Source: a virus (lineage: Duplodnaviria > Caudoviricetes). Taken from it: a stretch of 64,000 nt of DNA. The stretch is taken from IMG/VR virus record IMGVR_UViG_3300020011_000226, positions 32,001 through 96,000 of that record; one strand, written 5' to 3'. This document shows, one piece after another, positions 3,208 to 55,175 of the stretch. Each line of letters starts with the position of its first letter. Position 1 is the stretch's first letter. The notes under the pieces were generated by a model. It was not told the origin of the DNA. It searched no databases and saw nothing but the letters and a program-made list of their open reading frames with translations. A program made the position numbers and the translations under genes.

Positions 3208-6200
3208 ATGGCAAACAATACAGGCTTAAGATTTAATCCGCTGACAGGCCTTGGTGGCTGGAGAGACAATCAACAGCAACAGAGCGTTCCTACAGTAGCA
3301 GAAGACTATATGAACCAATTCACCATGCCTATACCAGAATGGAAACCAGAGCGGCTACAAAAAGCAAGAACTTTTGTAGCAGATGTCAATAGTGGCAAGT
3401 TTGACAATTGGAATCCTATGGAAGATTATGACAGATGGCAAGGTGGTCTTAGAGGATTGTCCAATGATGAGCAGGCCATTTGGGAGTCACAGAACTATGC
3501 CAAGATACTTGATCAAAGCGAAGAATGGAGAGATAGGCTGTGGAGAAACCAGCAGTTTGTTAATACCTTTGGCATGGAAAGATTCCAGCAAACACCTGAC
3601 AAGAATGAAAGAGACAGAATGTATGAAGACTATCTGTTAGGTGATGCTATTGGTAAGAAGTATGGCTCTAACAGTAATCTTGAACAGCTAATGTCTCTCA
3701 CCCCTGAAGGTAAGAAAGAACTTCTGAACTCAGACTATAAAGCAAACTGGCAACTTAAACAAAGTGACCAAGCAGCAGAGAACAAGGATTGGGAAGACTA
3801 TACTTTAGGTGAAAGATGGAATGCTGTTAGTTCTGATGTGAGCAGCTATGGTATGGCAGGATTAGGTCTGGGTACTACCATTGGTGCAGCCTTTGAAGGT
3901 GTAGGAAGTATTCCTGGTGCAGCCATTGGTGGTCTGATTGGTGCAGGAACTGGCTTGGTTATGGGAGTTCTTAATCCAGAGGATGCAGCAAGTACTAATG
4001 CCATGCAAAGAAGGGCTGAGAATGATGATATTCTGAATAAGATAACTGTTGCTGATAATGAAAGAAAGAAGGTTGATAGTCAAGATTCCATCAATGATTT
4101 ATGGTCAGCTTACACCAAGGCATATAGTCAGGGACAGATTACCTCAGAACAGGTGGATGAGATGTTTGACAATCTGGCTCTAAGTGGTAAGAGGACTGCT
4201 ACTGATAAACTTGGGAATACCCAAGAATATGACTATCATGGCTCCAATTACTATACCATGTTCAAGGATGAAGATGAGTTTGAGCACTTTGGTACTGTAG
4301 ACAAGCTAAAGTATATTGCCCAGAGTCAAGTATTAGGACAGAAATATGGTCAGGGTACTGCTATCAATATATTGGAGCAGGACATGCAGAACTATGTGTC
4401 AGACAATCAAAGTAGCTGGCAATGGGCAGGTAATTCCTTGAAGAATGTATGGGTAGGCGGTGTAGCCAACCTTGCCAATAATGTGACAGCCCTTGGTGCA
4501 TTGAGTGCAAAAACTTTTTATGGAGAGGAAGGATTGGCTGAGTATCTGAAAGGTAAGGATGCATCTGGGGATGGTACAGACAACTGGTTTAACCCCCAAT
4601 ACTGGAACAAGGTGGATCAATACAACACTTTTGATACAGATGCTATTGCCAAAGCAGACCAGAATGGTGGTATCTCCATATATAATAATGTGGTTACCCC
4701 AGGTACTGAAGGAGACTTCTGGAGTTGGAATACTTTAAATGAAGCTGTGCGCATGAATAAATTCGCATGGTCAGACTTACTGAAGAACCTCTCATTGGGA
4801 AGAATGGTAAGAGGTGCTACCAGACTTGCGGGTGGTGTAGAACTTGCCCCTGGAGTATTAGCAACAGAATCTCCAACGGCGGCACAAGCTATCAACAAGG
4901 TAGGTGCTCTTGGTGTAATGAATGCCTCTTCATTAGGTATTGATGCAGCCTATGGTATGCAGACTTATGAAGAAGTACTCAGACAAAACAATGAGAAACT
5001 TGACCAGATTATAGACAAAGATACTGAAACAGAAGTACAAAGAAGGCTGCAAACCAAGGAGGCACAAGCTGACTTCCGTAGGTTTGTAGATACTGAGAAT
5101 GCCCGTAGGAAAGCAAGAGCAGGTGAAAGAGGCAGTTATATTGCTGTAGATGAAGATAAGGCCTTTGTAGATTATACTGAGTATCTGAGAAAGCAAGTTA
5201 GACAGGAACAAGAGGCCTTACATCAAGAAGACAGGCAACAGGCTGAGAATGATGCAGCAAATGCCTATGCTGTGGATGCTAGTATTGAACATTTAAGAAT
5301 GGCTACCACCAATGGAGTGTTCAAGAGCTATTTGTTTGACAAAGGCACATTAAATGCCATAAGGAAGAACAATCCTTATGTGGCCACTACTACTAAGAAT
5401 GGTCAGTATGCTCTGGCTAAGAATGCTACAAGAAATGCAGCACTTAAGCAAATGGGCGTACAGGTATGGGGTGGATTCCACTCTAACTACTTTGACGATG
5501 TAACAGTAGGTTTTGCGGAGGGCTTTGGACTACAGGACTATAATAACTACCTGCTACAGAAATACAATCCAGCAGCCTATGGAGCTGTTATTGACGATTA
5601 TGTGAATCCTTTTGTTGCTGGTATAGCTGGAGCTACCAATGCTATGACAGAGAAGAGAAGTTTCTTGGATGGTGGTATTGGAGCCTTAGGAAGCTTCATG
5701 ACTGTATCTCCAAATGTCAATGGTATGATTAGTCATAGGCAAAGAATGAAAGAGCTTGCAGAAGCTAATAAAAAGCAGGGAACTGAGAAGCAAGGTATCT
5801 CTACAGCAGAATGGATAAGTGACTTTGTGAACAATCCTGTATTGCAAGCAGTAGCAGATGCCAAGCAGAAAACCAGGATGACTGAGGCAGAAATAAAAAG
5901 AATTAATGATATAATAAAAGAGTCTGGCTATTCGTTGGATAATATAGTGGAAACTGCATCAGCACTGAATCAGAAAGTCATAGCAAGAGAAGGAACTTCC
6001 CTCATAGAAGCTGAGGATGCAAAGGATAGAGAAGCCTTTGCACTGGCAAGTACTTTACTCAGTCTAAGGAACTCAGGTGTAGTAGCTAATGCACAGGCAG
6101 AACCTAATAAAGCCAACTGGAGCAGGAAGAAGAGAGCTGCTGCTACTATAGGCAGAGGATTTAATATGCTGCTTGGTGTTCCTATGTTCAATGAGGCAGA

Positions 6201-31400: not shown

Positions 31401-33205
31401 GATTTATCTTGATTCTTACCATACTTTTTAGCACGGAAATTTTCATAGCTAACATCTTTGCTTCTTAAAGACTCAAGAGCATTATCATATTCCTCTCTGG
31501 CTTCTACTGTAAAACCAGCATTGACAGAGGGCCTGATGCCCTGATATTTTTCAATAACTTCCAAAGCATTTCTAATATCTCCTTTATATGCATTTCTTGT
31601 TTCAGTCCTAAACTCCTGTAAAGCTGTCAGGTAAGCTTTCCTCAAGCTGGCATTATTGTAGATCCTGCGAGCAGCCTTGTCAGTCATAGGAATGCCTAAG
31701 GCTCTGGCAGACCTCTTCATGAAGTCTATACGCTGAGGAAAAGACACTTGATAAAAACCTGCAAATTGCTGGTTATTGAACAAGTTGTTTCTGTTCTCTT
31801 CATTAGGAACAGTTAACAGACCCTTATTTTCAACATTCCATTGAGCCAGTTTCTCCCAATCGACTTTTCCTTGCTCATCATAGATAGAACTACTTCTATC
31901 AAGAGCCTGATGCAGCTGCATCCTCAATACAAACTCATCATGCAAAGGGTTGGCCTGTCTATTGAGTATCTTAGCATATATATTACCTGCCTTAGTCTTA
32001 AGCAATGCAGAATAAGGAACCATGTTCTTATGCATGTCAATAAGCAGCTGAGTCAAGATAACAGGGTTCTTAGGCTTGTTGCTATTATCTATAGACTTAC
32101 TTAAATCTGCCTGAGAAGCTTTTGCTAATGCATCAAACACAGCTTTTACCTTAGGGTCAGAGTCTGACAAACTCTTTAGTTTTCTGACCATACTGCTCTC
32201 AGAGGTAATACCACGCAGAATATCAGATAGATACTGATGAGTTTCTACTGGATCCATCTTAATAAGATAGCCTAAGTCATCAGTCATCCTCTCTCCAGCT
32301 TCATCTACATCTGTAATAGTAGAAAGAAATCTCCTGACCTCAGAACCCAAGGAACCAAAAGCTGAGGTTTCTGACTGATGGGTCATCCAAGCCTCACGGA
32401 CTGACTCTTCCAGATTGTAGGTATCCTCCAAGGGAGAGTCCATAGAGAAGTTATCGGGGGAAGTAGGAGCAGCATACTCCAAAGTATTAACCCCCAACTT
32501 CACACTCTCCACATCCCGTAAAGACATTCTGGCGAAAGTACACAAAGCAGACCAGTTCTGAAGAATCTTAGGATACTCCCGAACAATCATCCTTGCCCTT
32601 TCTACATCAGCCTTATCAGCTTCATCAAGACCATTTAGCTCATCTTCGGAAAGTCCTTCTACCTCTTCCATAATAGCTCTTGCCTCATTGAATCTGCCTA
32701 CAAACTTGTCAAAGATAGACTCAAAGATACTAAGCTGACCTTCATGGTACTGTCCATTTCGCTTATAGCCATTAACTACCTGTTCTCTTGTCAAAGAGAT
32801 ACCAGCTTTCTTAGCAGCTGCCATTCTACGGCTTACCTCATTGGTAAATTCAGAGGCAACCATATTGATTCTATTTCTACGAGTAGTCTCATTCCATCCT
32901 GGAACATGGTATAACTGATTAAAAGTGCCTGCCATATGATTGGTAGAGCTTCTCATTTCCTGAAGATGCCTTTCAGCCTGCTTATGCTTATAGTCCATCA
33001 GTTGAGTAGCTACATTGGCAAGTTCAAGTCCTTGGATAGTCTTATCATCTACAAGAGGATCAATAAGAGGTTTTGCATTATCCATGTCATAAAGACCTCT
33101 TAGAGTGCCAATATCTTCTTTGGTAAGACCTTCTCCAAGAAACTGTGCAATCCTATCATCAATGCCTCCAGCTGGAGATATGTGGCATATAATCTGCTTG
33201 CTCAT
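25481..33205 (-). CDS. Virion DNA-dependent RNA polymerase (single-subunit double-psi-beta-barrel, crAss/phi14:2 type)
   Basis: Catalytic AGFDFDIDKLY motif preceded by AYRIPT; also TDGQGYRS, QKRYK, FGTQIRKLI and LAASVDAVKDPVL motifs; 2574 aa. Confidence 0.92.
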   Translation of the reverse strand: MSKQIICHISPAGGIDDRIAQFLGEGLTKEDIGTLRGLYDMDNAKPLIDPLVDDKTIQGLELANVATQLMDYKHKQAERHLQEMRSSTNHMAGTFNQLYHVPGWNETTRRNRINMVASEFTNEVSRRMAAAKKAGISLTREQVVNGYKRNGQYHEGQLSIFESIFDKFVGRFNEARAIMEEVEGLSEDELNGLDEADKADVERARMIVREYPKILQNWSALCTFARMSLRDVESVKLGVNTLEYAAPTSPDNFSMDSPLEDTYNLEESVREAWMTHQSETSAFGSLGSEVRRFLSTITDVDEAGERMTDDLGYLIKMDPVETHQYLSDILRGITSESSMVRKLKSLSDSDPKVKAVFDALAKASQADLSKSIDNSNKPKNPVILTQLLIDMHKNMVPYSALLKTKAGNIYAKILNRQANPLHDEFVLRMQLHQALDRSSSIYDEQGKVDWEKLAQWNVENKGLLTVPNEENRNNLFNNQQFAGFYQVSFPQRIDFMKRSARALGIPMTDKAARRIYNNASLRKAYLTALQEFRTETRNAYKGDIRNALEVIEKYQGIRPSVNAGFTVEAREEYDNALESLRSKDVSYENFRAKKYGKNQDKSRGAGNDRIIKMLDALASVDSRLKTERRVSWFDRKGKANSRYSDRTPSYMGDMVDKIHEFVNEGDAEGLKSFIMDKWGQSSFFYDKAEGRFLNKWLQEMYDSIRTDSKGNVIIDFDALAKVFEFDEFLGSNIDKQVAIFENFTEKQHAEAMMKQFVQLLDQSHGKSRLAKYPCFILGDSGAQMFFTAKRYSKAEIMEGMKDVFRQEIERMKYVKATNEVLEKGGFKTIDNFSQTADEFTMMKFLNPNFVDGKYWKILTGNQQMTDAEMKVMSREEAIDAARDALGTDALTDAIQTYMDDSKADFMEKLANAGVIERVKGEGGVITYTDPKGYFGQNVKWFNNSIDSLVDDFFWNTKYATIQQLQLFTVDPAFYDHRYPVKDLQKRYKEIYAPGKGVSAEARDFDGNLYSNRSYEKVVYFDDIAVSSEDVNPLFFQLLQKTFGDNSPVVKAYKENTLTDGQGYRSLSSYRAVKGMAGEWTRPMEEAYKRIMNIRNNGQPLTEADIQEIAQLAVIFQPIKPYLYSLEKLKINDEGDMALIPVQHKYAEVVLIPELMMEGKLKDMAVWMENNDIDLVASTKCVKVGAFGSSDLKGANTTETINAALDKAYVHNLPWSDYRIQSGVPEHLNHAQLFGTQIRKLILAGINKSHNYDYLSNILGKSEDALGPTVYLPGMGKVHLSGRNLVSLYNCLVMGNLFDSYNRFATETATNQKLSDKMIQNIVSNANQSEDNAFGFSIIEDGENKGQFVVPLGEPGLEHDATALLFSLFKKGVNKQKIKGGSAVQASALGLSGYEESGDLFEVVSPEGDNVLYDEIEMPWNLSYTSATGKNVGLRFEDWCNPDGTLKMSDQIVYGDDAKEYLSWPVSGRDKYGRAIDPEQGYYVPLIETKYKGILDIIAYRIPTERDYSMVNAKVFRFSNPLAGGTLKVPSSRTTTAGFDFDIDKLYFFMREFAQTHLSDKDIENIWNSIYEMHPQWKEALREARDNDQLGLKLMDVLATGFKDDFSGLGELNKQTKHKDRLYYYWESAGLEGTPEEAFTKYLEDHRDKYPVFDTYNPEASPLNPVIGKNGEVVTKGNSRVARNNMLIDLIRQRLMDKETLKARYTPGGFESNRDAALRMRVLQFADKEDITTNGKIDWSKVDSYVESINRGERKDPEPEYDVSDPTAILVYNQQNQVAGKLIGIFANQNTNHVYASTLHELSLRDPIKFGNHSARGLFDMLHAPEGIDVDTNVAEYLAASVDAVKDPVLNFLNLNLTTADAGALLARIGYTPQEIGLLFNQPIIKELCNYIANESVSTDVAIAEMLKRYGGSRMQLENIKYDAINATSDKLADNILTDRTIDKSNMPQEFKQGQLQVLWLFNELMADTADVNSFVQCTRFTAANSVGSTWGEQLAQEERVRTFIEKYMKEPTGPVDPRRLAFQLFDPSEARSNRVLHAGEEAVSENNQGILNIDEELLDLTPEEYMSQMSRNPLAFEQCMMDLSRKTTRSLFKKHFPYYTQLYSNMRNIMRRLTKYGGLDADTVNSLHREFILYLLSKQRGSSFDGETANLFVDPTGNITNRQYYTQHYPMLLHALKAEGVLSHIPFFDALTITGDADADAETNPLQISVQGMGGLQTRTSNLITEAWAQAYNSDEIVHSNFLQVDIPVKQLAEDLYFYNFYKLGYNFHPTSSMSLAPTLLKLGLRVNNNSTEEGYIDFINDVIDGNVSMDSNDLISFAKQYILNHLDNKKFVFTPKGNARSTVNNLAYNEQGKYWNNEFSISLKSVGKDVASLFTIYDDTLAKGENAFRPVIALERDGSTVYYMANSRGDRFNVTSSADGTMTYKLVHAQGIKGQHIQYFGNAAFEAYQRSGSLNNFRSVEETVTDNSIANNEAVEGEAPATPEGAHIEIGTDVSQMFTDTEWERMFKQFRKDNEKVFARDDMQGFSAQDFKSLMQDTSDSQNVDILNDLAKRIGRGERMQTLDDKGEVVDVC

Positions 33206-46819: not shown

Positions 46820-47527
46820 TTAATACTCTTGATACCACTCTATGCCATAACCGTTCTGGCTGATTAGAATATCATTTATCCGTTTCCATAAGTCAGAAGG
46901 CATCTTGGCTTTAGTCCTTGCATAGTATGAGGGGTGTCTGATGCGAATTACATAGTTGAACTGCTTATTGATGTACATATCGAAACTCTGTGCAGCAGTC
47001 CCCATGAGAACATAGACAATACCACATGTATGCTTGGACAAGTTAGTGAGCAAGGACTTGATGAAAGGTCTCCACAAAAGGCTGTGTGAGCCTACTCTTC
47101 CTACTTCACAGGAAAGTGCTGAATTCAACATCAGCACCCCCTGTGCTTCCCACTTCTCCAAACTTGGGTCAAAGTTAACATATCCATGTGGGACAGTGTA
47201 GTCTATTACAGATTCCCTTAGGACTTCTAAGGATGGAGAATAAGAAGGCTCTGGAGTATCAGGAGAGTTAGCAAAAGCTATTCCTGTGGCTACTGGGACT
47301 GTGGTAATACCATTGCCAATAGAAGAAGGCTTAAGAGTTGGATAGGGGTCTAAACCTAAGAGTACCACACGAAGGTTACTGAGGGGACAGAGAGTGAATG
47401 CTTTGAAGATGTCTTTCAGTTGAGGGCATATCACACAATGAGAGGCTGACAGTTTCCTTAGGATTCTATCAGCCTCATTTAGGTCTACCGCTTTAGACCA
47501 GTCACCAAAATACTCTTGTACGGTCAT
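46820..47527 (-). CDS. ung: Uracil-DNA glycosylase family 1
   Basis: LLGLDPYP, ATGIAF, SPSL, WEAQGVLMLNSALS and HPS motifs. Confidence 0.9.
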   Translation of the reverse strand: MTVQEYFGDWSKAVDLNEADRILRKLSASHCVICPQLKDIFKAFTLCPLSNLRVVLLGLDPYPTLKPSSIGNGITTVPVATGIAFANSPDTPEPSYSPSLEVLRESVIDYTVPHGYVNFDPSLEKWEAQGVLMLNSALSCEVGRVGSHSLLWRPFIKSLLTNLSKHTCGIVYVLMGTAAQSFDMYINKQFNYVIRIRHPSYYARTKAKMPSDLWKRINDILISQNGYGIEWYQEY

Positions 47528-48273
47528 CAGATTATCTCCTCTATATGGTCTCTAGCCACTTGCAACAGGTCTTGATTGGAGATGGTAACAGGAGGAGGAA
47601 TGACTTTTGTAATGGCAAAAGGACTTGCGCCTATTTCTACTACTGGATATGCTCTTGTTCTTTCAGTGATGGTAAACAGCTCATTTTTAATAGGAACATC
47701 ATTCACTAAAGTGGTTAGAGCAGTATTAATAAACTTTTTTGCAAGAAACTTTTCCATGCTGTTATGCTGGTTCAAGAAACAGTCAGGATGAATCCTTATG
47801 ATGGGACGAAGGTAGCTAAAAACAGTATTTCCATCTACTTGTAGCCTCTCCATTTCCCAACTGCACATCATCAGAGGTTCGAAATTAGTGTCAAAGACAG
47901 CTCCGTAAGTACCATAGTATTTTATGGTATCTTCCCCTTGCTTTACCTCCAAATCAATAAAACGCATTGATGGATAATGTGTTATCAGAACATCACACAT
48001 AAAACGGCTTACTGTTTTATGGCTTGGTTTACGTCCTTTTGTGTATAGTTCTGCAACCAAAGTACTTACTTTGGGATTGTTACTGAGAGAGGAGAAAGCC
48101 TTGTTAAATAGGAATAAAGGAATCTCAAAGACTGGCTTGCCGACAGGTATCTCCATTTGCGCACCATCTTTTCTATGGAGCTGGTCTTTATGCATATAGA
48201 CAAGTCCATCATCTGATGCATTGACACGACATTCAAAGATTCTCTCTGTTATGCTATTCAGTGTCTGTGTCAT
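47527..48273 (-). CDS. Unknown protein translationally coupled to the E1 gene
   Basis: 248-aa ORF; TAATG overlap with E1 and TGATG overlap with ung. Confidence 0.7.
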   Translation of the reverse strand: MTQTLNSITERIFECRVNASDDGLVYMHKDQLHRKDGAQMEIPVGKPVFEIPLFLFNKAFSSLSNNPKVSTLVAELYTKGRKPSHKTVSRFMCDVLITHYPSMRFIDLEVKQGEDTIKYYGTYGAVFDTNFEPLMMCSWEMERLQVDGNTVFSYLRPIIRIHPDCFLNQHNSMEKFLAKKFINTALTTLVNDVPIKNELFTITERTRAYPVVEIGASPFAITKVIPPPVTISNQDLLQVARDHIEEII

Positions 48274-49424
48274 TAGTTCTCAGTTTTAAATAACATGTTC
48301 TGCGCATCATACTCAGTAAAGAAGGGCAAATCATAGGGGATTACAGGATCAAGGTTGCTAGCCACAAAGTTCACAAAGAGATTGGTCATCAATGCTCCTA
48401 TCATACAAGCCATATAGGTGGTCTGTTTCATAGAGCATACAGTAGCATCTGCATCCTCATCAGAGAAGAGGAACTCCTGCTCATATCTATCCATGTTATA
48501 GAGGTCATCTCCTTTGATGCATAGAATTTGAAGGGTATCGACTGATAGTCTGCCATCAAGATAGAGGCAGTTCTTTCTGTTTTCTTCATCTAAGCACTCA
48601 ACACGACGAAGCCAGCTGTTAAAGAATGCTCTTCTGGCTTTCATATTATCAAAGCCACATATCATGATGTCAGTAGGAGTACAGTCAGTCGTAAATCTCC
48701 TTGTATAGCAGTAGATGTTGGAAGTATTGGTACCCCTTTGGACTATGTTAGCTATAGCATTTACTTTGTACTCTCCTACATCATTGAGGCTAAAGAGCTG
48801 ACCAGACAGATTGGCTCTCTCCACTCTATCATCATCATACAGGTATATACACATTGGATGCATTCTTCCTATTTGAAAGGCAACGTGACTACCAATGCCA
48901 CCGCATCCAGCAATGGTTAGGTATTGTCGTTTGATAGCCTCATACCATTCTGCTCCAGAAAACCTTGAAGTGGCTTCCTCTAAGAGTAGGGTAGGGGAGT
49001 TTGGGGGTAATAGAGGTTCCTGGGAGGGAGGAACAGCAGTATCATTGCTGCCAATTGAAGAAGGTGCTGACCATGCCTGTACTGGAGCTATATTGCCTGT
49101 TGCCTCCTGTGTGTCCCAATCAGCATCCTCTTCAGCATCAAGGTCTCTGCCTTCTCCTATATTCTCATCATAGATTTCCTCTTCCCCATCAGTAACTTCT
49201 TCTGCATCGGCTGCATGAACTTCCTGAAAGCCGTTCTCAGAAAGAATATCATCAACATCATCACCTGAAAGGACTTGGGGTTGAGATTCTACTACTTCTG
49301 GGATAGAAGGATAGGCTGCTTCAAGTGCTGATGGAGAAGCAGTCCCTGAGGCAGGTAGTGTAGCATCTGAGTCATCATCCACTCCAAGGGAATTCAACCA
49401 GTCATCAATATTTATATTATTCAT
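48273..49424 (-). CDS. E1/ThiF-family activating enzyme with a long acidic N-terminal extension
   Basis: IAGCGGIGS, YDDDRVERANLSGQ, GEYKV, CGFDNMKARR and DGRL motifs; candidate catalytic Cys in TVCSMKQT. Confidence 0.9.
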   Translation of the reverse strand: MNNINIDDWLNSLGVDDDSDATLPASGTASPSALEAAYPSIPEVVESQPQVLSGDDVDDILSENGFQEVHAADAEEVTDGEEEIYDENIGEGRDLDAEEDADWDTQEATGNIAPVQAWSAPSSIGSNDTAVPPSQEPLLPPNSPTLLLEEATSRFSGAEWYEAIKRQYLTIAGCGGIGSHVAFQIGRMHPMCIYLYDDDRVERANLSGQLFSLNDVGEYKVNAIANIVQRGTNTSNIYCYTRRFTTDCTPTDIMICGFDNMKARRAFFNSWLRRVECLDEENRKNCLYLDGRLSVDTLQILCIKGDDLYNMDRYEQEFLFSDEDADATVCSMKQTTYMACMIGALMTNLFVNFVASNLDPVIPYDLPFFTEYDAQNMLFKTEN

Positions 49425-50616
49425 AGATATAGCGGTTTAATACTTCAATATATTCCTGAATGAAGGGATTTTCTGAATATTGATAAAGCTCTGCCTTCAT
49501 TGCCTTAGCAATCTTGGACTGATATAATTCCCAGTCATTATAGAGACCCTCAGGAGGATTTGCTTCCACATGTCTGTTAATGCAGAATTCTACAACAAAC
49601 TCTTTCCACTCATCAAAGTTGTCTGAATCGGGGAATATCTCTTCATACTTTTTATTCATGTGACGAGTGACCCACTGCTTCAGATCGAGGTCTTTGTTGA
49701 CAATGAAAGAACAGGTAATCATCTGGCATATTAAATGGTGAATCTGCTCAGCATCAGGCTTCCACTCGGATAAATCAGTTATTTCCTCCACTTCTTTCTC
49801 TGCGAAGAGTATCTGCTCTTCTGCTTCAGCCTTCTGGGCATTTCTCCATGTATTAAAGGAGAAATCATTGTCCCCCTTGATAGCAGATGGGACTGTAGCT
49901 AATGGGAATTTATCAAGCTCTTGTTTCTTCTGAGCTTCAATTTCCTCAAACCTCTTATCAAGGAAGTCATAGGGATTGTCTACTACCTCTCGACGCACAT
50001 CCAGTATGAAATACTCAATGGTAGTATTGTCTGTAGTAACCTCAGTGACTTCACCTCCCAGATTAAGTTGCTTTTCACCCTCACCAAAGAACTCATAGGA
50101 ATCACCAAGGTTTATAGTAGTTACTTTCTGCTTTGTTTTTACTTTTCTGGTAATAGCAGCCTGATATGTGCCTTTAGTATCTACAATCAGAGAGATAAAA
50201 CAGTTGGTGTCATTACCTTCTGACCAAAGGGTCTTTAAGTCTTGGCCACTGAAAAACGCACCCATGGTGTGGTGTGAATGCACCAATGACAAATCACAGT
50301 CAAATAATTCTATGTTTTTTGCCATATATGCAGAGACATCAGGAGTCATTTTGAACTCTGTCCATCCATTTGTACCTATGTCCATAGGAAACAAGTCTAC
50401 ACAATAGATTTCCAAGTCTCCATTTTCAAAAGTTCCAGAATGGGTAGTAAAGAGTACTCCAGACCACTCAGTATGAGGAAACTTTCTGATGAGATACCTG
50501 ATTTTCCCTTCTACCTCGCGTGGTACAAAGAGCTTATATGTAGCAGATTGTTTGATCAGTCTGGGCAGGATTTTGATTTCCTCCTGCTTCTGGTAATTGT
50601 TTGGGTTTATTTCCAT
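49417..50616 (-). CDS. JAB/MPN+ metallo-isopeptidase
   Basis: EWSGVL ... HSHHTMGAFFSGQD matches E-xn-HxH-x7-S-x2-D. Confidence 0.88.
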   Translation of the reverse strand: MEINPNNYQKQEEIKILPRLIKQSATYKLFVPREVEGKIRYLIRKFPHTEWSGVLFTTHSGTFENGDLEIYCVDLFPMDIGTNGWTEFKMTPDVSAYMAKNIELFDCDLSLVHSHHTMGAFFSGQDLKTLWSEGNDTNCFISLIVDTKGTYQAAITRKVKTKQKVTTINLGDSYEFFGEGEKQLNLGGEVTEVTTDNTTIEYFILDVRREVVDNPYDFLDKRFEEIEAQKKQELDKFPLATVPSAIKGDNDFSFNTWRNAQKAEAEEQILFAEKEVEEITDLSEWKPDAEQIHHLICQMITCSFIVNKDLDLKQWVTRHMNKKYEEIFPDSDNFDEWKEFVVEFCINRHVEANPPEGLYNDWELYQSKIAKAMKAELYQYSENPFIQEYIEVLNRYIYE

Positions 50617-51754
50617 AATGATAGTCAATGATTCTTAGAATGTTGTTTAGGATGGACAATGCCAGTACCTTGTTCAGTATAAGGGTTGCTCCCTCTTCGT
50701 TATTGCTTGAAGTACTGAAAATTTTCAGTTTGATGTCTTCTCCTTTAAACCAGAGGACATGCCTGCCTTCATACTGTTGGAGATTGGTAGAATCCAGATT
50801 ATTGTATGAATAGAACTTACCATCTACAACAAATGTCTTGATAAGCCATTTGTTAGTGAAAAGAGGTTCTACATCTTCTTTGCTGAAAGACTGGTTGAAC
50901 CAGCTGATAAAGGCATTGGAAATATCAATCATAAAGTCGAAGAAATGCATACCACACTGGTATCTTCCGTTAATAAAACAAAGTTGCAGAGTTCCCAAAG
51001 ACAAGTAATAGTCTGTGAAAGTCCTAATATGACGTTCAAATACTCCTGTATGCGTTTTATCAAAGAAGAGAAGAGCCTTAGGGTCAACATCCTCAAACTG
51101 GGTGTATTCTTTCATTGGCGCTTTTCTTCCAATCTCCTCTAGCTTTCTATATGGGCCACCAGTAAGAGACTCAACAGTAACATATCTTGACAGTTCCTCA
51201 CAGAAAAGCATCCATGCGATTTCATCACAATCGTTCTTCAAGTCAGCAATAGTATTGCCGATAGGCCCTGTTCCCAGACAAGGATCCTGGAAACCAACCT
51301 CTTCATCCATGCGATACCTTCCTGGTACATGAGAATGTATATACCCTGATACAAACTGAATATCTGAGAAAGTGCTTCTTTCTAATTGGAATCCGTAGTT
51401 TTCATAGGGTATTCGACCTTCCATAGTCAGTTTAATCTTTGCATAGAGGTCTTGGATTTCCACAGATTTATTATGTTCATTGGTGACAGTCACCTTAGGC
51501 CACCATACATAAATGTATGGTTGGATGGATGCAAATGATTCCTTAATATCATCCAGCTGAATGTCAGGAATGTCATACCTTCCGTCAGGTTCTGCTGCTA
51601 TTCCTAAATTTCGGACAGCATGTACTATCATAGAGTCACCAGCAATGCCTTGTATATCCACATACTCCTCCTTGAAGAAGTCTACAAAAATCTGATAAAC
51701 TAAGTGGACTTGGGAAAATATAGTATCCCGAAGCTCATTGATTGTGTACAACAT
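50534..51754 (-). CDS. Prokaryotic E2-like (UBC-fold) protein
   Basis: YIHSHV...QDPCLGTG resembles the E2 HPN...CL/CxG active site; lies between the Ubl and JAB genes. Confidence 0.6.
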   Translation of the reverse strand: MLYTINELRDTIFSQVHLVYQIFVDFFKEEYVDIQGIAGDSMIVHAVRNLGIAAEPDGRYDIPDIQLDDIKESFASIQPYIYVWWPKVTVTNEHNKSVEIQDLYAKIKLTMEGRIPYENYGFQLERSTFSDIQFVSGYIHSHVPGRYRMDEEVGFQDPCLGTGPIGNTIADLKNDCDEIAWMLFCEELSRYVTVESLTGGPYRKLEEIGRKAPMKEYTQFEDVDPKALLFFDKTHTGVFERHIRTFTDYYLSLGTLQLCFINGRYQCGMHFFDFMIDISNAFISWFNQSFSKEDVEPLFTNKWLIKTFVVDGKFYSYNNLDSTNLQQYEGRHVLWFKGEDIKLKIFSTSSNNEEGATLILNKVLALSILNNILRIIDYHYGNKPKQLPEAGGNQNPAQTDQTICYI

Positions 51755-51771
51755 AAGAATGATTTAAATTA

Positions 51772-51808
51772 GAATAAAAGAGGCAGGATAACTTAACACC
51801 CTGCCTCT
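51772..51808 (-). terminator. Intra-operon terminator between the Ubl and E2 genes
   Basis: AGAGGCAGG...CCTGCCTCT 9-bp stem followed by UUUUAUU on the minus strand. Confidence 0.7.
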
Positions 51809-51834: not shown

Positions 51835-52512
51835 TTAGAGGTCTGCTATCATTTTGTCAACAACATCATCAGACACCTTAGGCTCAGCCTCTTTCAGACG
51901 GCCAGCCAGCTCTGTGACAAGCTCTGCAAGCACCACTACATCATCAGCATAAAGCAGGCGGTCATTAACCATAGCCTTGATACCATCATAGAACCAGTCA
52001 ACTGTATTGGCATGGGGAGCTGTTACAGCAGGAGTTGGAGTATTAACTTTCTCTTCCTTCTTACTGCCAAAGTTGTCAAGCTCCTCGCGGGTTTCCTCCA
52101 AAACATCTGCACCTCTACGGTTGATGTCAATATACTGCTCAAGTACATCAGTCTTCACGCGGGTGTAGTTCTGACCCTCCCCCTCAAGAATAGCACCCAT
52201 AAGTTTCATTTCCTTCACCAAACGGTAAGCTTCCTTTCTATCCATAGCACCAGAGGCAATCTGCTTGTTGGGATTGGTCAGCAGGATTACCAGGTCATTG
52301 GTAGGCTGTCCCTTGTACATAATGTTAGAGGGCAGCTGAGTATCTCGACTCAACAACTGGGTCTTGGTAATACCCTCAGTGAATGACATACCAGAGAAAT
52401 CAATACCTTGGGCAATCATCTGATCTTGGAGTTCACCCAACGTGGTGGCTGAAGTCTGAATAGTGTGACGCTGTTGAGTCTTAGTGTTGGCAATTCTAAT
52501 TGTTCTTTCCAT
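51835..52512 (-). CDS. Ubiquitin-like (beta-grasp) precursor with a C-terminal extension
   Basis: About 88-aa N-domain with a beta-beta-alpha-beta pattern (RTIRI..RHTIQT.ATTLGELQ...DTQLP...LVILLT) ending KQIASG-A; first gene upstream of E2/JAB/E1. Confidence 0.65.
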   Translation of the reverse strand: MERTIRIANTKTQQRHTIQTSATTLGELQDQMIAQGIDFSGMSFTEGITKTQLLSRDTQLPSNIMYKGQPTNDLVILLTNPNKQIASGAMDRKEAYRLVKEMKLMGAILEGEGQNYTRVKTDVLEQYIDINRRGADVLEETREELDNFGSKKEEKVNTPTPAVTAPHANTVDWFYDGIKAMVNDRLLYADDVVVLAELVTELAGRLKEAEPKVSDDVVDKMIADL

Positions 52513-53634: not shown

Positions 53635-54585
53635 TTAGCCATCCCAAGGCATCTTATCGCTGTTGTCACTGCCTGAATCAGCAGGAGCCTGCTCCAGATT
53701 GGTAGCTTCTACTGTGTACTCCTGAAGCTCCTGTACACGGAACTCTGTAGTAGTGAAAGCACCATTCTGCTTAGCCTGTGCAAGAACCTTCTCCAGTCTC
53801 TCATAAGCCTTGCTGCCTGCACTGTTGCGGAGAATCATATCCCCACGGGAAGCAATGGTCTGATACTGCTTGCCCTCCTCAGTAGTACGGACACCATAGA
53901 GCAACTTCACCTTATTGTTAGCACGAATGCCAATGGCTTCAGAAAGCTCAGAGAAATTGCCAGTAAAGTAATCCTTGATGTGCTCCAGCTTGAACACATA
54001 CTCCTGTGCATTCTCCTTCTTGACCCACACACCATTAACATAGTTGAAAACATCTTCTGCACAGAGATAGGCCTTAAGGAAATCAACTAGGTCACACTCT
54101 CCTACACATGCCATACGATACTTTGTATCAATCTTCTGAGGATTGCCATCATCCTTCATAATGGGCTTGTTGGCCTTGGCATCTTCCTCATTGACCCATG
54201 TATGGTTGCCATAGTCATCAATAACCTGTACCTTGGTCTTGTCACGGTTATAAGCAGGCTCTAAGCGAAGGGTAAACATCAGGCGATTGGTTACCTCTAT
54301 GCCATTGTTAGCCTCTGGGTCTGTGCGCACAATAAAGTTGATATGAGCCTCCTTGCCATTCTCACCTTCCTTGATATATTCAGGATCACTCTGGCTCTCA
54401 TAGCCCATCAGCTCATCCAGCTTGCCCTTCTTAGGATTGACAGCCAGTACAAAGCTACTGCCTACACCAACATAACGTGCAAAACTTTCACCAGTCTCTT
54501 TACTCTCCTGAGTCTTGCCAATAGCAAGGAAGCTGACAGTGGCCTTCTTGCGGTCTGAATAATTGTTGTTTAAATTCTCTTTCAT
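53635..54585 (-). CDS. Putative single-stranded DNA-binding protein
   Basis: Located between primase and AAA ATPase; acidic tail ending DKMPWDG. Confidence 0.55.
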   Translation of the reverse strand: MKENLNNNYSDRKKATVSFLAIGKTQESKETGESFARYVGVGSSFVLAVNPKKGKLDELMGYESQSDPEYIKEGENGKEAHINFIVRTDPEANNGIEVTNRLMFTLRLEPAYNRDKTKVQVIDDYGNHTWVNEEDAKANKPIMKDDGNPQKIDTKYRMACVGECDLVDFLKAYLCAEDVFNYVNGVWVKKENAQEYVFKLEHIKDYFTGNFSELSEAIGIRANNKVKLLYGVRTTEEGKQYQTIASRGDMILRNSAGSKAYERLEKVLAQAKQNGAFTTTEFRVQELQEYTVEATNLEQAPADSGSDNSDKMPWDG

Positions 54586-54620: not shown

Positions 54621-55175
54621 TCATTGGTTCTCCCAGGGCATCTTGTTCTCTGACTCTTGCTCATTGGCAGGCTCAGCACCAACTCCTGCTCCTCCACGCT
54701 CATCTTCTGCATTATCTGCCTCAGGCTGAAACTCAGGCTCTTCAACAGGGTTCTCTACAGTGTCAGCCTGCTCATCAGGAACAGTGATGACATACTCCTT
54801 GGTAGTAGTGTCGTAGGAGACAATATCAGTAGGGATATACTTAGTAACCTTGTTACCTTTAGAGTCAGTCTCAATAACCTTCTTCACAAGGTCGGTAGCC
54901 TTGAAGCCAATAATCTGCACAATGCCTGCCTCTATGCCATCAATCTGGGAGTTCTTGTCTGCTACCTCAGCTTCCAAAGCTGTCTTCTTGGTCTCTAGCT
55001 CAGTCTTGATTCTATCCTTAAGCTTAGCAAGAGCCTGCTCTGCCTTTGCTTTGAACTCCTCATCCAGACCATCAATCTGGGCTTGGATTCTGTTTCTCTG
55101 ACGGATAATGGGGTCAATAGCCTTGGCCACACTTTTTGCACTTTGAAATTGTACAAATGAAATTCTTTTTTCCAT
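54621..55175 (-). CDS. Coiled-coil protein with an acidic tail ending NKMPWENQ
   Basis: Heptad region and SSB-like tail. Confidence 0.65.
   Translation of the reverse strand: MEKRISFVQFQSAKSVAKAIDPIIRQRNRIQAQIDGLDEEFKAKAEQALAKLKDRIKTELETKKTALEAEVADKNSQIDGIEAGIVQIIGFKATDLVKKVIETDSKGNKVTKYIPTDIVSYDTTTKEYVITVPDEQADTVENPVEEPEFQPEADNAEDERGGAGVGAEPANEQESENKMPWENQ

Follow-up and report, generated by a model that had tools for sequence, protein, structure and literature searches.

Does the ubiquitin-like protein encoded next to the primase gene of a crAss-like phage work as the single chain in which it is made, or is it the precursor of a smaller modifier that a neighbouring JAB protease sets free? 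The question is raised by an open reading frame at positions 51835-52512 (minus strand) of the window, by which we mean the whole 64,000-nucleotide stretch analysed here (positions 32,001 to 96,000 of IMG/VR record IMGVR_UViG_3300020011_000226). The window comes from a crAss-like phage of the crAss001 group (Steigviridae); at both the DNA and the protein level it is matched best by Kolpuevirus, Kehishuvirus/crAss001, the PhiCrAssBcn phages and uncultured cr1xx phages. The reading frame encodes 225 amino acids and is the counterpart of crAss001 gp79, which carries the label 'hypothetical protein' in GenBank. Judging from conservation among homologues, structure models and analogy with known precursors, we consider it fairly likely that this protein is the pro-form of a phage ubiquitin-like modifier (Ubl), cut by the neighbouring JAB at the G88-A89 bond so that the Gly is freed for the E1.

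Residues 77-88 of the translated protein read LLTNPNKQIASG and are followed by AMDRKEAY. The codon of Gly88 lies at 52249-52251, and 137 residues extend beyond it. The first-pass annotation had described a Ubl-like domain that ends in SG instead of GG and continues as A-MDRKEAY into a helical part of 137 residues, and both the translation and the AlphaFold2 (AF2) model bear out this description. The protein can be divided into the following parts:

52249 to 52512, minus strand: Ubl (beta-grasp) domain and tail, residues 1-88 (AF2 model; VIA-align Z 7-9 over 1-84)
52249 to 52266, minus strand: conserved tail K83-Q-I85-A-S87-G88, proposed P6-P1 (column entropy; pLDDT below 50 at 84-88; JAMM interface 83-90 in the complex model)
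52240 to 52248, minus strand: variable junction A89-M90-D91, P1'-P3' (entropy 2.57 bits)
52126 to 52239, minus strand: conserved three-helix passenger domain, residues 92-129 (column conservation; AF2 helices)
52021 to 52125, minus strand: variable acidic low-confidence linker, residues 130-164 (entropy 3.36 bits, occupancy 0.69; low pLDDT)
51838 to 52020, minus strand: C-terminal helical region, residues 165-225 (AF2 helices; body variable, end motif conserved)
51850 to 51873, minus strand: acidic end motif S214-DDVVDKM221 (conserved, 2.00 bits)

The AF2 model of the 225-aa protein, which was built on 22 homologues, has a mean pLDDT of 78 and a pTM of 0.37; so low a pTM agrees with separate domains joined by flexible linkers. 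Residues 3-79 fold into a compact unit of strands and one helix, pLDDT falls below 50 at residues 84-88 and also at 137-142 and 147-159, and helices are modelled in the passenger (residues 89-225) at 92-101, 105-112, 121-148, 168-183, 189-209 and 215-224. A VIA-align search of ~48,000 PDB representatives matched residues 1-84 almost exclusively to ubiquitin-fold structures, i.e., TINCR Ubl, DIX, UBX, MoaD (Z 8.0), FAT10, ubiquitin, SUMO and ISG15, with Z 7-9 and an rmsd of 2.1-2.9 Å over 69-76 aligned residues; since a Z below 8 alone can reflect a common arrangement, the weight here lies on the uniformity of the match list. The best Foldseek matches of the model were also ubiquitin-like, at a weak E of about 4e-3. 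As modelled, residues 1-84 adopt a beta-grasp (ubiquitin-like) fold.

We then compared the columns around Gly88 across the family, which comprises 1064 cluster representatives at 90% identity and 796 at 50%; residues were counted in 154 of the 796. Both G88 and R92 are present in 154/154, S87 in 151/154, K83 in 143/154 and I85 in 142/154, and the pattern of G88, S87 and R92 in this alignment is not one of chance. The tail (residues 83-88) is the most conserved segment with a mean column entropy of 0.91 bits, compared with 1.48 bits for the Ubl core (1-82), 2.57 bits for the junction (89-91), 2.01 bits for the first helical domain (92-129), 3.36 bits for the linker (130-164; occupancy 0.69), 3.18 bits for the C-terminal helices (165-213) and 2.00 bits for the last motif (214-222). 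The P1' residue is A in 195 of 270 sequences and otherwise V, C, M, I, S, G or T, and the spacing from G88 to R92 ranges from 2 to 9 residues among homologues. A conserved P side followed by a loose P' side of variable length is the pattern of a deubiquitinase-type site, as expected if the protease recognises the Ubl together with its tail. The earlier prediction of an invariant Gly followed by variable tails was thus correct for the Gly and too simple for the tail, which is modular: residues 89-91 and 130-213 vary, while 92-129 and the last ~10 residues are conserved.

The tail motif is retained at a considerable distance. In Flavobacterium phage FpV4, the counterpart gp53 (289 aa) carries KQVKSG, then GRGDG and then a similar helical stretch, and BLASTP aligns its SG with S87-G88; the FpV4 E1 is only 34% identical, yet K-x-[IV]-x-S-G is kept in gp53. 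At the other end of the precursor, the true C-terminus is not Gly, and its length varies among homologues beyond the acidic motif. With neither a Gly nor a fixed length at its C-terminus, the uncut precursor would be a poor E1 substrate.

A natural 90-aa form of the Ubl (P0274) has no passenger and ends ...NTNKQISSG-DK-stop, so that its stop falls two residues past the conserved Gly. The gene is internal to three contigs from three samples (L083 2927-3199; also L084 and L085), with the primase gene before it and a hairpin with a T-run, then the E2-like gene, after it; this form is known from metagenome contigs alone, which end inside the E2-like gene, before the JAB gene. Its position beside primase and the E2-like gene indicates that the domain ending at SG is the unit that accompanies the enzymes. 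Variants of 142 and 150 aa, seen on one short contig each, end behind the first helical domain. As the passenger is missing wholly or partly in these natural forms, the Ubl does not depend on it. Further short matches were excluded from the evidence: P0269-P0271 resemble reads with a frameshift, P0272 (89 aa), on a contig of 544 bp, may be truncated, and the genes downstream of P0273 on its contig are unrelated.

The Ubl gene belongs to a cassette of fixed order, i.e., primase, Ubl, 406-aa E2-like protein, JAB, E1, 248-aa protein and UDG, which was seen in crAss001 and at every IMG/VR locus long enough to show it (about 70). Downstream of the Ubl gene, the window contains:

51779 to 51808, minus strand: terminator-like hairpin with a 12-bp stem, then TTTATTCT (MFE -23.2 kcal/mol, z = -3.95)
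50534 to 51754, minus strand: 406-aa protein, candidate diverged E2/UBC-like N-terminal domain (homologue alignment; AF2 pLDDT 82.5; VIA-align list)
49417 to 50616, minus strand: JAB/JAMM metalloprotease, proposed processing enzyme (E50, H113-S-H115, S123, D126; Pfam Prok-JAB)
48273 to 49424, minus strand: E1/ThiF-type adenylating enzyme (single adenylation domain, residues ~150-383; Pfam ThiF 8e-17)

The hairpin starts 27 nt past the Ubl stop codon and separates the Ubl gene from the E2-like, JAB and E1 genes. In L083, too, the short Ubl gene is followed by a hairpin of this kind with a T-run, at about 3255-3295. Going by its sequence, such an element would give more Ubl transcript than enzyme transcript. 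The E2-like and JAB genes overlap by ~80 nt (50534-50616) in different frames, and similarly in most related loci; the overlap may partly come from choosing the first start codon. In the crAss001 group, the 248-aa protein (47527-48273, minus strand), which is of no known family, always follows E1 and its gene abuts that of UDG. FpV4 has the UDG gene placed between the primase and Ubl genes.

The JAB protein matches Pfam Prok-JAB with an E of 3.5e-4, its 20.8 bits lying below the family cut-off of 25. It has the JAMM zinc site E...HxH-x7-S-xx-D, formed by E50, H113, H115, S123 and D126, all of which are invariant in 19 diverse homologues. To see where such an enzyme would contact the precursor, a complex of JAB residues 1-215, Zn and residues 1-135 of the Ubl precursor was modelled. 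It scored an ipSAE of 0.69 (three runs: 0.71, 0.69, 0.61) versus 0.01 for the best of 3 controls, the mark for ipSAE being one that, in the calibration of the method, 58 of 80 solved complexes and 2 of 110 mismatched pairs reach; the score is the model's own confidence, obtained with author-built alignments and a riding zinc, and it may partly reflect likeness to, or memory of, JAB-ubiquitin complexes that have been solved. At least 82% of the contacts are common to the runs, with a partner pLDDT of 83 or more. In the confident interface, JAB residues 50, 52, 113, 115, 123 and 125-126 meet Ubl residues 83-90 and a beta-grasp surface; the helical passenger stays outside it. The predicted complex supports binding of the Ubl tail by JAB. 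A cut at the G88-Ala junction is hence favoured by three lines of evidence, namely the conserved tail with its variable junction, the natural 90-aa form and the complex model.

The conservation of the passenger allows a different reading. As the first helical domain is conserved nearly as well as the Ubl and R92 is invariant, both could work as one uncut protein, judged from the alignment. The protein would then be a two-part adaptor similar to UBL-UBA shuttle proteins, whose Ubl docks on E1, E2, JAB or a host factor and whose Gly is a hinge to a helical effector or targeting domain, with JAB acting elsewhere. This would agree with the joint conservation of the Ubl, the helical domain 92-129 and the C-terminal motif over hundreds of clusters, and also with the independent, flexibly linked domains to which the pTM of 0.37 points. 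A plain hinge does, however, not explain the invariant S-G, the conserved K-x-I-x before it and the stretch of variable length behind it, nor the natural form that stops two residues past the Gly. Nor does it account for why the gene is so strictly linked to that of an E1, which requires a free carboxylate, although the real C-terminus is unconserved, and the complex model sets residues 83-90 on the JAMM residues. We therefore regard an adaptor that is never cut as unlikely, and keep the JAB-processed precursor as the preferred reading.

The E1 has a disordered acidic N-terminal extension followed by one ThiF domain of about 230 residues. Its best NCBIfam match is ThiF (4e-17), and MccB and UBA5 are its closest PDB relatives by sequence; membership in NCBIfam PRTRC-ThiF was rejected as too weak (42 bits vs a cut-off of 145). 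Residues conserved to at least 95% in 67 homologues are GxGGxG 173-178, D197/D199, N205, Q209, K220, D259, C256, C286 and C330. The extension (residues 1-150; 48975-49424, minus strand) is long, acidic and of low complexity, varies in length among relatives, whose E1 genes encode about 228 to 430 aa, and is absent in FpV4. The 406-aa protein had no family match in PADLOC or NCBIfam, which likewise returned none for the Ubl and JAB proteins, and Foldseek found nothing with its model. Residues ~5-200 of the model nevertheless gave a VIA-align list of mostly E2, UEV, RWD and Cap2 folds, at weak Z of 4.5-5.5. Its residues H140, H142 and C159 are invariant in the homologue alignment and lie between the beta-meander and the next helix of the AF2 model. 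Based on this model, the 406-aa protein is probably an E2. Going by the gene linkage and the intact E1 motifs, the E1 would activate the Ubl, which may then be attached to targets.

Alternatively, the Ubl could be cut and then serve as a sulfur carrier, bearing a ThiS/MoaD/CysO-like thiocarboxylate for nucleotide or cofactor modification, in which case the 406-aa protein would not be an E2. An E1 of the single-domain ThiF type with MccB and UBA5 as relatives is in line with this idea, as are the presence of MoaD (Z 8.0) among the fold matches of the Ubl, the weak fold matches behind the E2 assignment and the sulfur chemistry carried out by Ubl-JAB-E1 sets that lack an E2 (PMC1779556). However, the cassette showed no sign of a rhodanese, a cysteine desulfurase or a sulfur-acceptor enzyme, and the 406-aa protein keeps an invariant H-x-H...C on a UBC-like scaffold. 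Moreover, the gene order Ubl, E2, JAB, E1 is that of Bil operons (PMC11601596). A sulfur carrier thus appears quite improbable to us; as it departs from our reading only after cleavage, it is compatible with a precursor. That the passenger arises by translation from an internal start near Met90, and not by proteolysis, is very improbable, for a Met does often stand two residues before R92 (AMDR, AMSR, MDR, AVAMSR), but many members have L, I, G or another residue there (VLSR, ALSR, AINR, AGDR), which marks the site as a hydrophobic helix-cap position instead of a conserved start codon, and the Gly of the Ubl would still be blocked.

Processing by JAB could proceed as follows. The JAMM protease would bind the beta-grasp domain, thread the K-x-I-x-S-G tail through its zinc site and cut the G88-A89 bond. 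This would yield two products. One would be a Ubl of 88 residues whose C-terminal Gly is free, for the ThiF-type E1 to adenylate and probably hand on to the E2-like protein; the other would be the acidic helical remainder of 137 residues. Cleavage, E1 activation and any conjugation are steps that we infer in this scheme. Direct support exists for the beta-grasp fold, the way the residues are conserved, the constant gene set, the complete catalytic motifs and the short form found in nature.

What might the second product do? The consensus of the passenger domain 92-129 is R.EAY..IK..LQ..IK..FG.N[FY]T.V.T..L..[FI]I, with Y96 in 140/154, N115 in 140/153, T117 in 148/153 and L124 in 151/153 of the 50% representatives, and the last ~10 residues of homologues follow the consensus S-D-x-D-I-D-x-M. 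The conservation of R92, Y96, N115, T117, L124 and the end motif suggests that the passenger has some role, and a function of its own, as the first-pass annotation had supposed, is plausible from these columns. The helical domain may resemble SAP/HeH motifs. Searches for relatives gave neither an E2-like feature nor a family or fold match (Pfam, PDB profiles, ESM Atlas, tblastn): Pfam scans of 26 passenger sequences returned scattered single matches and no family, ESM Atlas features yielded nothing usable and structure matches of TM below 0.4, and tblastn against phage genomes matched the same locus in relatives only. A PDB profile match to SipD (E about 1e-3) lay in low-complexity helical stretches and was judged spurious.

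As natural forms exist without it, the passenger is best seen as an optional accessory. It probably serves as a tether or a regulator, masking the Gly ahead of cleavage by JAB, and may also play a separate part in the replication module. A more far-reaching reading, which we consider doubtful, is that the passenger is a second functional product of this module: its three-helix domain and acidic motif would tether the pro-Ubl to DNA or a replisome protein, and JAB cleavage would be a timed local switch that releases the active tag and the free passenger equally at the replication site. If so, the precursor would parallel, in a phage, the fusions of ubiquitin to ribosomal proteins. Two proteins encoded just upstream of primase (53635-54585 and 54621-55175, both minus strand) have an acidic stretch and then K-M-P-W at their ends (...SDNSDKMPWDG and ...ESENKMPWENQ), and the Ubl passenger also ends acidic-hydrophobic. 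In the manner of SSB tails, the ends of several replication-module proteins may dock on a common partner.

crAss-like phages are among the most abundant human gut viruses, and cultured carriers of the Ubl gene are crAss001, DAC15/17, PhiCrAssBcn and FpV4. Should the protein be a JAB-processed precursor, crAss-like phages would run their own ubiquitin-type activation pathway with a built-in maturation step, whereas such pathways in bacteria have so far been studied only as anti-phage defence. In our literature search, no paper turned up that mentions crAss001 along with ThiF or ubiquitin, nor any that mentions crAss-like phages along with ThiF.

The proposed processing mechanism is of a known kind, being preceded by Bub, Bil and lambda gpI. 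In Type I Bub, Edman sequencing placed the cut that the JAB domain of BubCD makes in the Ubl-E2 fusion BubAB directly behind G229 (Ye et al. 2024, PMC11601596). Both systems share a large C-terminal passenger on the Ubl, an E1 of the single adenylation domain type and a same-operon JAB/JAMM that cuts after a conserved Gly and thereby frees the C-terminal Gly of the Ubl, this cut being proposed for the phage. They differ in that the Bub passenger is the E2 itself and its JAB is fused to the E1, and in that Bub includes BubE (DUF6527), forms oxyesters and is bacterial; in the phage, the E2-like protein, JAB and E1 are separate, the passenger is acidic and helical, and the carrier is a phage replication module. 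With separate genes, a passenger that is not E2-like and no DUF6527 match, the phage set does not classify as Type I Bub, and PADLOC gave no Bub, Bil or CBASS profile match for the Ubl or JAB.

Bil (bacterial ISG15-like) operons are ordered BilA-BilB-BilC-BilD (Chambers et al., 10.1101/2023.09.26.559546; Hor et al., 10.1101/2023.09.04.556158), and in BilA, Gly97 is followed by Ala98 and processing by the JAB BilC is needed to expose the Gly (Chambers et al.). Part for part and in gene order (Ubl, E2, JAB, E1), the phage set agrees with Bil, and it shares the G-then-A junction. However, BilA carries one extra residue compared with 137 in the phage precursor, and Bil is a host anti-phage defence. 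Among the Bil profiles of PADLOC, BilD matched the Rossmann part of the E1 alone (1e-7), a partial match, and BilA, BilB and BilC gave none; with its one ThiF domain and acidic extension, the phage E1 is not built like a Bil E1.

Within phages, the tail protein TAPI (gpI) of lambda and T1 lies beside the JAB protein gpK, and release of its Ub-like domain at a Gly has been predicted (Iyer, Burroughs and Aravind 2006, PMC1779556). It resembles our precursor in having a phage Ub-like domain, a conserved terminal Gly, a linker, a small C-terminal domain and an adjoining JAB gene; it differs in lacking an E1 or E2 and in being part of a tail module, and its cleavage is itself a prediction. Sequence searches revealed no relation between the two sets.

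The eukaryotic fusions Ub-RPL40, Ub-RPS27A and FUBI-RPS30 place a modifier ahead of an unrelated functional protein, and both are freed by cleavage after the terminal Gly. In these fusions the proteases are mostly Cys deubiquitinases, the site is GG and the passengers are ribosomal proteins, which are not known to be homologous to the phage passenger. TUG is likewise a precursor cleaved after the terminal Gly of its modifier part (PMC9556833). What sets the crAss-like phage system apart from Bil, Bub and lambda gpI is the combination of a phage replication module with a full set of E1, E2-like protein and JAB, an acidic helical passenger and the modular loss of that passenger.
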